64,000 bases of DNA from Gemmatimonadota bacterium (GTDB taxonomy: Bacteria; Gemmatimonadota; Gemmatimonadetes; Palauibacterales; KS3-K002), in the NCBI GenBank assembly GCA_039586795.1, contig JBDHJS010000005.1, forward strand, positions 67,096-131,095, read 5' to 3'. Below, piece by piece: positions 54,001-57,000 of this stretch. Each line of letters begins with the position of its first letter. The first letter of the stretch is position 1. A program made the position numbers.

Positions 54001-57000
54001 ACCAACAGACATCGCGACCCTGCCAACGTGTACTCGGACTCCGTCGCCTCGCGTTCCAGAACCAGGTCGCAACCGGGCTCGAAGGCGCCCGTGGCGTCGA
54101 GAGCGGGGGGCGGGGTAACCGATGGATTCGATTTGATGCCGGTAAGAACGGGCGCCCAAGCGCCGCCCATCAGCCGGGCGCGGTGTCCGTTGGCCATCAC
54201 CCGACGCAGAGCGTTCTCGATCACCCGCTCGAGGTGAGCTCGATACGCGGCCCGGCTCGCCGCGAAATAGACGTAGCCGCCAATACAGAGCGCCCAACCG
54301 TCGCCCACCATTTGCTCCCACGCCAGTCGGCGATCCGGGTTCATCGATATGAAGGATTTCTCAACGGCTATGGTCCGGCCCTTCACCGGCCAATTGGCAG
54401 CGGTATAGGCATAGCGCACGAATGGCTCGTCGCGTTCGGGCGCCCAGGTATAGGCCCCACTTCCCAAGTCCTCAAAGAGCGGGTGGCCACGAAAGCTCTG
54501 CAGACCACGCATGACTCGGGTTTCGCTGAAGCTTCCGGCATGCTCGTCAGCGGCGTCCTCCATCCACGCCGCCTCGACGATTTCGTCCGGCGGATTCGAT
54601 TCCCACCCGAGCCGCACCGGAAGCTCGGAGGCACCCAGCGTAGCGAGCAGGCCGCCGCCAGCCCAGACGTGGGCATCGATCGTCAGACGCGTCTCCTCGT
54701 CCAACTCCGGCAGCTTCGTCCAGTGGAACCACAGCGTCGACCTGCGCCCGAGTCTCGTGCTCGCCAATTGAGAGAGCGTTAGGGTCCGAACATCATAGGC
54801 CGCCTTCTGCTCGAGCCACGCCAGCGCGGCGGCGTTCTCTCGGGAGACATCGCCATCAGGTTGGACGAACAGAATCTTCGATCTTTGGGTCATACCCCGG
54901 CGTCCGTGGAGTTTTGATCAAGATAGAGGGTTTGGGTATGCAAAGTGAAATCCCCGGAGCCGCTCTCTCAACGACTCCGGGGATCTCGACCAGCCTGTAA
55001 ACGCCGGATCAATAGCTGGCGTAGACCTTGGTGTTTCCTTCTCTGTCGAAGGTCAGCACGTCGTACGGAACTTTGTCGCCGTCTGGTGTCTCCATCCCCG
55101 GCGAGCCTACCGGCATCCCGGGCACCGCGAGACCGACAATCTCCGGCCTTTCCTCGAGCATGCGCAGGATGTCCGCAGCGGGAACATGGCCCTCGACGAC
55201 ATAGCCATCGATCACCGCCGTATGGCAGCCGGAAAACTCGTCACGCACACTGTTACTTCGCTTCGTGGCCTGGAGCTCGGCCTCGTCCACGTTCACCGCG
55301 TTGACTACAAAACCGTTGCTGCGCAGATGAACCATCCACGCTTCGCAGCAGCCTCAAGTAGGTGACTTGTAGACGGTGATCTCGGGGCCCGTGGCCTGGG
55401 CCAGCGCCGGCGGCGCCGTCTCCGTCTCAGAGCTGTTCCGCATCACGTAGTAGCCGGCACCGGCGCCCGCCACGAGCAAGGCAGCAACAGCGAAGGTCTT
55501 TGGGTTCATCGCACGCTCCTTGTATCAGCTATCACTAGCGAGAATGGGCGAATCTCACCCGATCAGGCGTTCAGCGCAAGTCCAGAGCCCCTTGCCGAAG
55601 AAAACCCGAAAGTGTATCTTGGTCCTCCACTCGCCCGCTCACGGGCGACTCTCCTGGGCCCCAACCTGTGGAGGCGTATGAGGGTAGCACCGATCCACGG
55701 CCGGGGGGTGTCCTACAATCCGGCCAACCGCTTCGAGGCGATCGCGGTCGTGCGCGACCGCTGGTACGATCCCGATGATCCAGCGCCGCGGACCGAGCTG
55801 TACCGCGATTCCAGCCGCTCGATCATCGTGCGGAACGACAGCCCGGATGTCGGCTTCGACGTCAGCATCAACCCGTACCGGGGCTGCGAACACGGCTGCG
55901 CCTACTGCTACGCGCGGCCGTACCACGAGTACTATGGGCTCTCGGCCGGGCTCGATTTCGAGACGAAGATCTTCGTCAAAGAGGACGCACCGGAGCTGCT
56001 CCGGGTAGAGCTGACGAAGCCGAGTTGGCGGCCGCAGACGCTGGCGCTGTGCGGTGTGACCGACCCCTACCAACCGGCGGAGCGCCGTCTGAAGATCACG
56101 CGTCGTTGTCTGGAAGTCCTGGCAGATTTTCGAAACCCGGTCGGTATCGTGACCAAGAATCACCTCGTCACGAGGGACATCGATGTGCTCAAGGAGCTGG
56201 CTCGGTTCAACGCGGTTGCCGTGACGTTATCGATCACCACGTTGGACGACCGGTTGCAGCGATTGATGGAGCCGAGGACATCCTCTCCCGTGCGACGGCT
56301 CGACGCTATTCAGCGACTATCGGACGAGGGGATACCGGTCAACGTCAACCTGGCACCGGTGATCCCGGGACTGACCGATCACGAGCTGCCGCGCATACTG
56401 CGGGCGGCCGCCGAAGCCGGCGCGCGAAGCGCCGGCTACCTGATGCTGCGCCTACCGCTGGGCGTGAAGGAGCTGTTCGCCGATTGGCTGCAGCAGCACT
56501 ATCCGGAACGCATGGACAAGGTACTGAACCGCGTCCGGTCGATGCGGAACGGTCGGCTGGACGACTCGCGATTCGGCAAACGGTTCCGTGGTGAGGGTCC
56601 GTTCGCCCGACAGATCGCTAATATGTTCAAGGTGACCTGCCGGCGGCTGGGACTGAACGAAGACCGCATCGAGCTCTCGACGGCCGCGTTCAGGAGGCCG
56701 CCAAAGGGCGTGCAGTTGAGGCTGTTCGACTAGCGAGTCGGCTGCGCTCACAAGTCAATGAGGATTGGCGTCCAGATCTCCGACTCGCCTTTCACCGATC
56801 CGTCGACGGCAACCTTGAAGCGCTGATCCTCGATACCGATGTCGACGCGATGGCCGCGGAAGGGCAACTGGGAAAGTCGCAGCGACTCAAGCTCGAACGG
56901 AAACGGATCGACGATGAACGAGTCGCCGCCCGCCGGACGGAAGCCCGCCGCGTACTTCACGATCAGGTCGTTCACCCACGAGTGCTGGTAATCGTCGAAG

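Follow-up and report, generated by a model that had tools for sequence, protein, structure and literature searches.

The window analyzed here is a 64,000-nucleotide stretch of a Gemmatimonadota genome (family KS3-K002, order Palauibacterales; contig JBDHJS010000005.1). Numbered along the window, the features at and around the locus are as follows.

55009..55509, minus strand: CopG/DUF411 gene of 166 codons, ATG to TGA, read through one TGA as selenocysteine (Sec, U) and ending in TGA (frame reading, PF04214, 6WIS match, model)
55444..55509, minus strand: hydrophobic N-terminus (about residues 1-22), a putative export signal or membrane anchor, with a polar linker after it (by inspection)
55354..55356, minus strand: in-frame TGA, codon 52, putative Sec at the first position of U-G-C-C (frame and comparison of relatives)
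55345..55356, minus strand: UxCC motif (U52, C54, C55) where helix 1 of the thioredoxin-like domain begins (6WIS alignment, model)
55093..55329, minus strand: other conserved candidate metal ligands H61, C95, H96, H108, M132 and M139 (alignment; invariant or nearly so)
55321..55341, minus strand: SECIS-type hairpin with a 9-bp stem (one G-U and one U-G pair) and GUU loop, a lower stem extending the predicted fold (folding and comparisons)
55516..55521, minus strand: Shine-Dalgarno-like AAGGAG ahead of the ATG (sequence)
54947..54987, minus strand: 18-bp hairpin directly 3' of the stop codon, without a clear U tract, either a terminator or an mRNA-stabilizing element (sequence; not called by the terminator scan)
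55612-56733, plus strand: PA0069-family radical SAM gene, divergent from the CopG gene (family match)
52266-54893 and 56748-59201, minus strand: two flanking MGH1-like glycoside hydrolase genes (family match)

A preliminary description of the locus had joined two gene calls into one 166-codon frame with an in-frame TGA in the motif KSPT-U-GCC. Reading of the frame bore this out: codon 52 (55356-55354, within KSPT-TGA-GCC) was its sole internal TGA, and GC3 was 0.82 before and 0.75 after it, the values already reported. Translation table 11 splits the gene and yields a 108-amino-acid ORF that lacks both the signal and the CxCC motif. Promoter and terminator scans found nothing at the locus, and assembled RNA contigs matched at most 0.31 of the words, in short pieces of which several came from other organisms and none spanned the gene.

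The read-through protein matched PF04214 (DUF411) at 92.2 bits (cut-off 27) and P. aeruginosa CopG (6WIS) with an E value of 1e-31, in agreement with the CopG membership proposed earlier. In the latter alignment U-G-C-C lay over C13-G-C15-C16 of the chain, with the TGA opposite Cys13; the CxCC site at the start of helix 1 was thus present, its first position being Sec. An AF2 model (pLDDT 93.5, U modeled as C) predicted both the thioredoxin domain and the C-terminal extension of 6WIS, which it matched with a TM score of 0.87 and an E value of 1e-16 (Foldseek) and with a Z score of 21.7 and an rmsd of 1.4 over 123 residues; the next-best folds were glutaredoxins and NrdH (Z 6-7). Across the P. 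aeruginosa structures (6WIS/6WJE; PF04214), identity was ~48% and rmsd 1.4-1.7 Å. The CxCC position, the C-H, EGH and Mx6M motifs, and a putative export signal (here by inspection) were shared with P. aeruginosa CopG and R. capsulatus CutG. The same residues were retained among the relatives: C-H, EGH and Mx6M in 52/52 Sec forms of the order, H61 in 51/52, and the C-H-T, EGH, Mx6M ligand set in 102-105 of 105 GTDB Sec forms among the matches listed. By inspection, relatives began with signal-peptide, lipobox or twin-Arg-like N-termini, and that of the protein studied here was hydrophobic. The His nine residues after the first Cys was missing in 10/58 Cys forms of the order (Tyr in L050, L055 and L060-L064) vs 1/52 Sec forms. 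Three other relatives (P0002-P0004) were 278-amino-acid proteins with two tandem CopG domains and CxCC in both.

A search of the order matched 127 of 145 genomes (own genome included) with 138 matches, 52 of them bearing one in-frame TGA and 86 none. The TGA stood at the equivalent of codon 52 in 52/52 TGA-bearing matches, and all 58 of the TGA-less matches that were read had Cys (TGC or TGT) there, extending the fixed position and Cys counterparts described earlier. Within the family, 21 of 24 matching genomes had the TGA (20 of 23 without the own genome, as first counted) and 3 had Cys; in the sister family it was found in 29 of 103 matching genomes, again as counted before, and four genomes of the order carried both forms. 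Beyond the order, a GTDB pattern scan recovered at least 106 true TGA homologs, with 14 chance matches among the 120 listed. To control for nonsense mutation, metagenomes were scanned with any of TAA, TAG, TGA and TGG permitted at this position. Of the 120 matches listed, 114 were homologs (113 scoring above 35 bits and one truncated at a contig end), and all of these had TGA; TAA, TAG and TGG were confined to the 6 non-homologs. Among Sec forms of the order, dN/dS was 0.043 over the 9 codons upstream of the TGA and 0.114 downstream of it, counted from codon +12 (96 non-independent pairs). TGA also served as the terminal stop of the gene itself and of 29/52 Sec forms of the order, and is therefore an ordinary stop in these genomes.

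The own genome (97.8% complete) encoded tRNA-Sec, SelA, SelB and SelD, confirming the machinery reported earlier; its SelD itself carried an in-frame TGA, and tRNA-Sec was the only tRNA with a TCA anticodon. SelA was found in 134/145 genomes of the order, which means that Cys forms occur in Sec-using genomes too. Of the 50 TGA genomes of the order, 46 had SelA, the other four being 71-82% complete. In the family of Helicobacter brantae (151-genome sample), DUF411 occurred in 45 genomes, with 29 of 30 loci readable as 6 TGA and 23 Cys; SelA was present in 6/6 TGA genomes and in 37/45 DUF411 genomes. SelA being near-universal inside both the order and that family, its co-occurrence with the TGA there does not discriminate. 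Outside the order it was found in 80/88 TGA genomes (76 above cut-off; among the matches listed) vs 6/14 chance-match genomes, the 88 being the 106 listed GTDB homologs less 17 Gemmatimonadota (likely order duplicates) and one second copy. Other likely selenoproteins of the own genome were a Grx-like protein (UPYC), a GrdB/PrdB-like protein (UxxC), two AhpD-like proteins (CxxU) and SelD, all encoded on other contigs (L383:218-490(-), L384, L385, L386, L352); the GrdB/PrdB-like and AhpD-like identities are ones that we presume from their motifs. A hairpin of the CopG type also followed the TGA in SelD, the GrdB/PrdB-like gene and the two AhpD-like genes, against a background rate of 1.7% of 129,026 TGA triplets.

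The hairpin of the CopG gene begins 12 nt past the TGA, with its loop at +21. The bSECIS model set out in the main text of PMC13188914 specifies a loop of 3-9 nt with G in position 1-2, a stem of 4-16 bp, a loop 16-37 nt after the UGA, and an MFE of -7.5 or below; here the loop was GUU, the stem 9 bp, the distance +21 and the energy -21 kcal/mol for 60 nt. The 60-nt fold taken alone was not significant (z -1.38), and the SECIS case rests on comparisons. The 9-bp, 3-nt-loop hairpin of the preliminary description was found at 55341-55321. In the order, 51/52 Sec forms vs 1/58 Cys forms had a perfectly paired stem of 7 bp or longer capped by a 3-nt G[G/U]N loop. Loops lay at +21 (44), +17 (6) and, in one case, +14, the +21 and +17 stems differing in sequence. 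Under a wider rule (3-9-nt loop), hairpins were found in 51/52 Sec forms of the order, where synonymous recoding would give 28%, and in 9/58 Cys forms (11% expected). Among listed GTDB forms the count was 77 of 106 (18% expected), and among distinct metagenome sequences it was 85 of 109 (19% expected). The 29 of 106 listed GTDB Sec forms in which that rule found no perfect 7-bp stem included many from Chloroflexota, Acidobacteria and Desulfuromonadales.

Selection on this hairpin was also visible in the codons that it overlaps. Synonymous difference over codons +4 to +11 was 0.061 in Sec forms of the order vs 0.40 downstream, an approximately 6-fold suppression, and 0.149 vs 0.33 in Cys forms; codon bias explains part of the drop, and Sec forms are ~3x more constrained. 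At residue +8, 46/52 Sec forms of the order had Gly or Val and at least 50/58 Cys forms had Asp or Glu, a change due to the SECIS loop, which alters the protein sequence. Uncorrected for kinship, covariation at stem pair 8 (82/147) exceeded all 2000 shuffles (mean 52, max 66), and that at pair 9 (66; shuffle max 69) was not above the shuffles. TGA forms in the H. brantae family showed a U-A to C-G change in the hairpin. The overlap of SECIS and codons, raised earlier as a confound, was largely resolved by the contrast between Sec and Cys forms, the synonymous constraint and the two hairpin registers. Two Cys-form genes, L028 and L361, carried the SECIS-like hairpin of Sec relatives. L028, the lone Cys form of the order with a strict-rule hairpin, was the tree sister of Sec form L048, and both genes are probable recent Sec-to-Cys reversions, for which such a retained hairpin is expected.

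The preliminary description had proposed a new selenoprotein family and an Se-Cu site from one order. Its Sec form stood, but the spread proved far wider, at about ten phyla by record titles among the matches listed. Listed carriers were titled Acidobacteriota, Gemmatimonadota, Betaproteobacteria, Chloroflexota and Rokubacteria/Methylomirabilota, with further ones titled Binatia and other deltaproteobacteria, Desulfuromonadia, Tectomicrobia and the cultured H. brantae. Sec and Cys forms interleaved, with at least 26 state changes, on a tree of 334 sequences from which the Sec column and the SECIS-bound residues had been left out; its alignment was short, its deep branches were weak, and it does not tell gain from loss. 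A single Sec clade (one origin, no reversions) was rejected by the AU test (p 3.6e-7, 43 sequences). Some record titles sat oddly on this tree, namely L113 (Streptomycetaceae), L197 (Bifidobacteriaceae), L226 (Verrucomicrobiia) and L118 (Bordetella); the first three grouped with Betaproteobacteria, Acidobacteria and Rokubacteria, respectively, and are probably misbinned or mislabeled. A plasmid search, a family-level count in which codons were not read, found Cys-type DUF411 genes to be common (3464 records).

No copper genes lay next to the own CopG gene; Cu-ATPase and CusA-like genes were encoded on other contigs, and no match to PF07732 multicopper oxidase was found in the genome. Linkage of CopG to a PA0069-family radical SAM gene was common to 17 loci among those sampled. 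A multicopper oxidase and a CopI-like cupredoxin preceded eight listed Sec loci, seven of them directly; seven of the eight were titled Betaproteobacteria, the other being L113, which groups with them on the tree. Three further listed Sec loci lay near an oxidase or a CusA-like pump. Copper or heavy-metal genes were found within ~2 kb in at least 11 of the 59 long GTDB loci kept, a lower bound because neighbors were sampled by recurrence and length, and in at least 3 of the 52 Sec loci of the order (neighbors sampled). Cys forms of the order were mostly orphans too, with 6/58 next to copper-type genes. In L124 (157-1197(-) and upstream; Caldilineales), the Sec-CopG gene was followed by a double-domain DsbA-like gene (NF041057) with an in-frame TGA at UPYC, which would make two selenoprotein genes in tandem. 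Elsewhere, Sec-CopG neighbors included a CYCXC-family protein, as a Cys form, and a SaoD/DsrE-family protein (L112:2346-2942(+), L144:2309-2707(+)). An H. brantae neighbor with AIRS domains, considered as SelD, was rejected as PurM.

DUF411, PF04214 and CopG were absent from the 119 entries of the 2026 selenoprotein inventory (Table 1 in the main text of PMC13188914), as had been stated before. Neither CopG nor DUF411 was mentioned in the text and four supplementary files of deep-Sep (PMC12013277) or in the main texts of bioRxiv 10.1101/2022.07.06.499078 and PMC2398784; the literature comparison also took in passages of PMC7558416, PMC8456105, PMC9240420 and PMC2757866. A full-text literature search, with subscription journals mostly outside its scope, returned no report of a Sec CopG and no co-occurrence of “selenoprotein” and “DUF411.” In the protein collection, where records bearing U may be missed, the closest forms were fragments of 81-109 amino acids, some from NCBI, and no full-length near-identical H. 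brantae protein was found. NCBIfam 20.0 held no fitting model, consistent with the earlier observation (NF041212, 15 vs 66 bits; TIGR02196, 21 vs 89), and the only CopG-relevant matches of 79 aligned members were weak Grx-like ones.

Set against known systems, CopG(Sec) resembles CopG/CutG in that some of its relatives lie in multicopper-oxidase or Cus clusters, and differs in having Sec in place of the first Cys and an in-frame SECIS altering residue +8, in the location of the present copy outside a copper operon, and in the lack of a PF07732 match in its genome. With the UxxC glutaredoxin-like selenoproteins (Grx, UXX-star NF041212/NF041114, SaoT) it shares a thioredoxin-like fold, a Sec N-terminal in the CxxC helix and the SECIS type; unlike them, it has an extra Cys (UxCC), a putative export signal, a C-terminal extension that bears Met, and Cys-His at strand 3. 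Members linked to copper or heavy metal do appear in the main-text table of PMC13188914: CopZ-family 2Fe-2S proteins, an E1-E2 (P1B-type) ATPase with UxxC, an SO_0444 Cu/Zn transporter and the NF041115 UxxU metal-binding protein. Like CopG(Sec), these tabulated predictions place Sec at a metal-binding Cys of a metal-homeostasis protein, but at chaperone or transporter sites, whereas the Cys homolog of CopG(Sec) is a periplasmic protein of solved structure whose Cu4 cluster is bridged by Cys. Selenium near copper is thus already represented in that table, and of the novelty claimed earlier for an Se-Cu site, what stands is Se at a multinuclear Cu-cluster motif.

For the Cys form, papers citing the CopG structure state that CxCC and two Met bind a tetranuclear Cu cluster in CopG and that the protein works as a Cu oxidoreductase, and CutG is described as playing a minor part in Cu tolerance of R. 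capsulatus. On standard bacterial Sec biology, we propose that SelB would bind the hairpin 21 nt downstream and deliver Sec-tRNA to the UGA, a step of which, like the reading of codon 52 as Sec, we are highly confident. The protein would be exported and fold, as predicted, into a glutaredoxin-like domain with the CopG C-terminal extension, where U52, C54, C55, C95 and the His and Met residues would form a CopG-type multicopper site with the selenolate as one putative copper ligand. By analogy with P. aeruginosa CopG, it may act outside the cytoplasm to interconvert or buffer Cu(I)/Cu(II), at a step downstream of export by CopA and CusA-type pumps. Selenolates are ionized at periplasmic pH, are softer ligands for Cu(I) and resist irreversible over-oxidation, and on this general chemistry Se would be useful at such a site. 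We know of no characterized natural example of an Se-Cu cofactor. The best explanation of the locus, an exported CopG with a Sec selenolate as a copper ligand, is in our judgment somewhat probable. The Sec at the CxCC site claimed earlier has held up; the ligand role is a reading of it, U52 being also the N-terminal residue of a UxxC pair.

That U52 occupies the canonical thioredoxin position makes a U52-C55 redox pair the main rival. CopG(Sec) would then be a real selenoprotein in which U52 is the nucleophile of a glutaredoxin-type selenenylsulfide beside the cluster, serving as an electron shuttle or copper-loading gate and not binding Cu stably. The model places U52 and C55 at the canonical CxxC site after strand 1, glutaredoxins and NrdH are its next-best folds, U52 lies opposite the Sec of the Grx-like UPYC protein of the same genome in alignment, and the CopG structure paper reportedly describes a cluster “adjacent to” CxCC as well as two oxidation states. 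UxxC redox motifs also predominate among the known families of the PMC13188914 main-text table. On the other side, two citing papers make the CxCC cysteines Cu ligands. By topology of the model, moreover, C95-H96 would stand at the start of strand 3 in place of the thioredoxin cis-Pro thought to keep metals off CxxC, which favors metal binding; a His there was not confirmed when the protein was aligned by profile to the Grx-like one, an alignment that beyond residue 45 was too weak to locate the site. Redox and ligand roles can also coexist, and we regard the purely redox alternative as unlikely, if still a contender.

Less probable by a good measure is a selenoprotein that in most lineages acts outside copper handling, as a general exported thiol/metal protein for Ag, Hg, As or disulfide chemistry. 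Most Sec loci are indeed orphans amid unrelated genes, and one adjoins the DsbA-like selenoprotein gene of L124; yet most Cys forms of the order are orphans as well, the CopG His/Met/Cys ligand set is fully conserved, and the informative contexts (oxidase, CopI-like, CusA-like, HMA) are copper ones. A genuine stop at the TGA, as in a pseudogene, a split gene or a sequencing error, or its decoding as Trp or Cys, is very improbable and largely refuted. Gene callers do split the gene, its fragments populate the protein collection, and a SelA match was missing in 8/88 listed TGA genomes outside the order and 4/50 inside. Against this, hundreds of loci share the same codon and never TAA, TAG or TGG, purifying selection acts on either side of it, and the downstream fragment would have neither signal nor CxCC. 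TGA is an ordinary stop here, and the only tRNA with the matching anticodon is tRNA-Sec.

We give about even odds to a reading in which CopG(Sec) holds a natural selenolate-bridged multinuclear copper cluster and Cys and Sec have been exchanged many times at the first CxCC ligand, in ~10 phyla, with a SECIS fitted into helix 1 each time. Sec CopG is, as most selenoprotein families are, the Sec form of a characterized Cys protein, and it is almost certainly a widespread selenoprotein family missing from the current catalog. The bacterial selenoproteome thereby gains a widespread family truncated by annotation, which has left the CopG genes of these genomes mis-called without their metal motif. 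In contrast to most predicted selenoproteins, this one has a Cys form with a solved structure, a colored copper cluster and an assay, so that direct metal ligation by Sec in metal-homeostasis proteins can be put to the test. Closely related Sec/Cys pairs, a Cys gene with a relic SECIS and a cultured carrier make experiment practical. Together, its breadth, clean SECIS signal and testable Se-Cu cluster set Sec CopG above a routine addition; if true, the repeated Cys/Sec exchange would be a natural matched series for the effect of selenium on copper redox chemistry.
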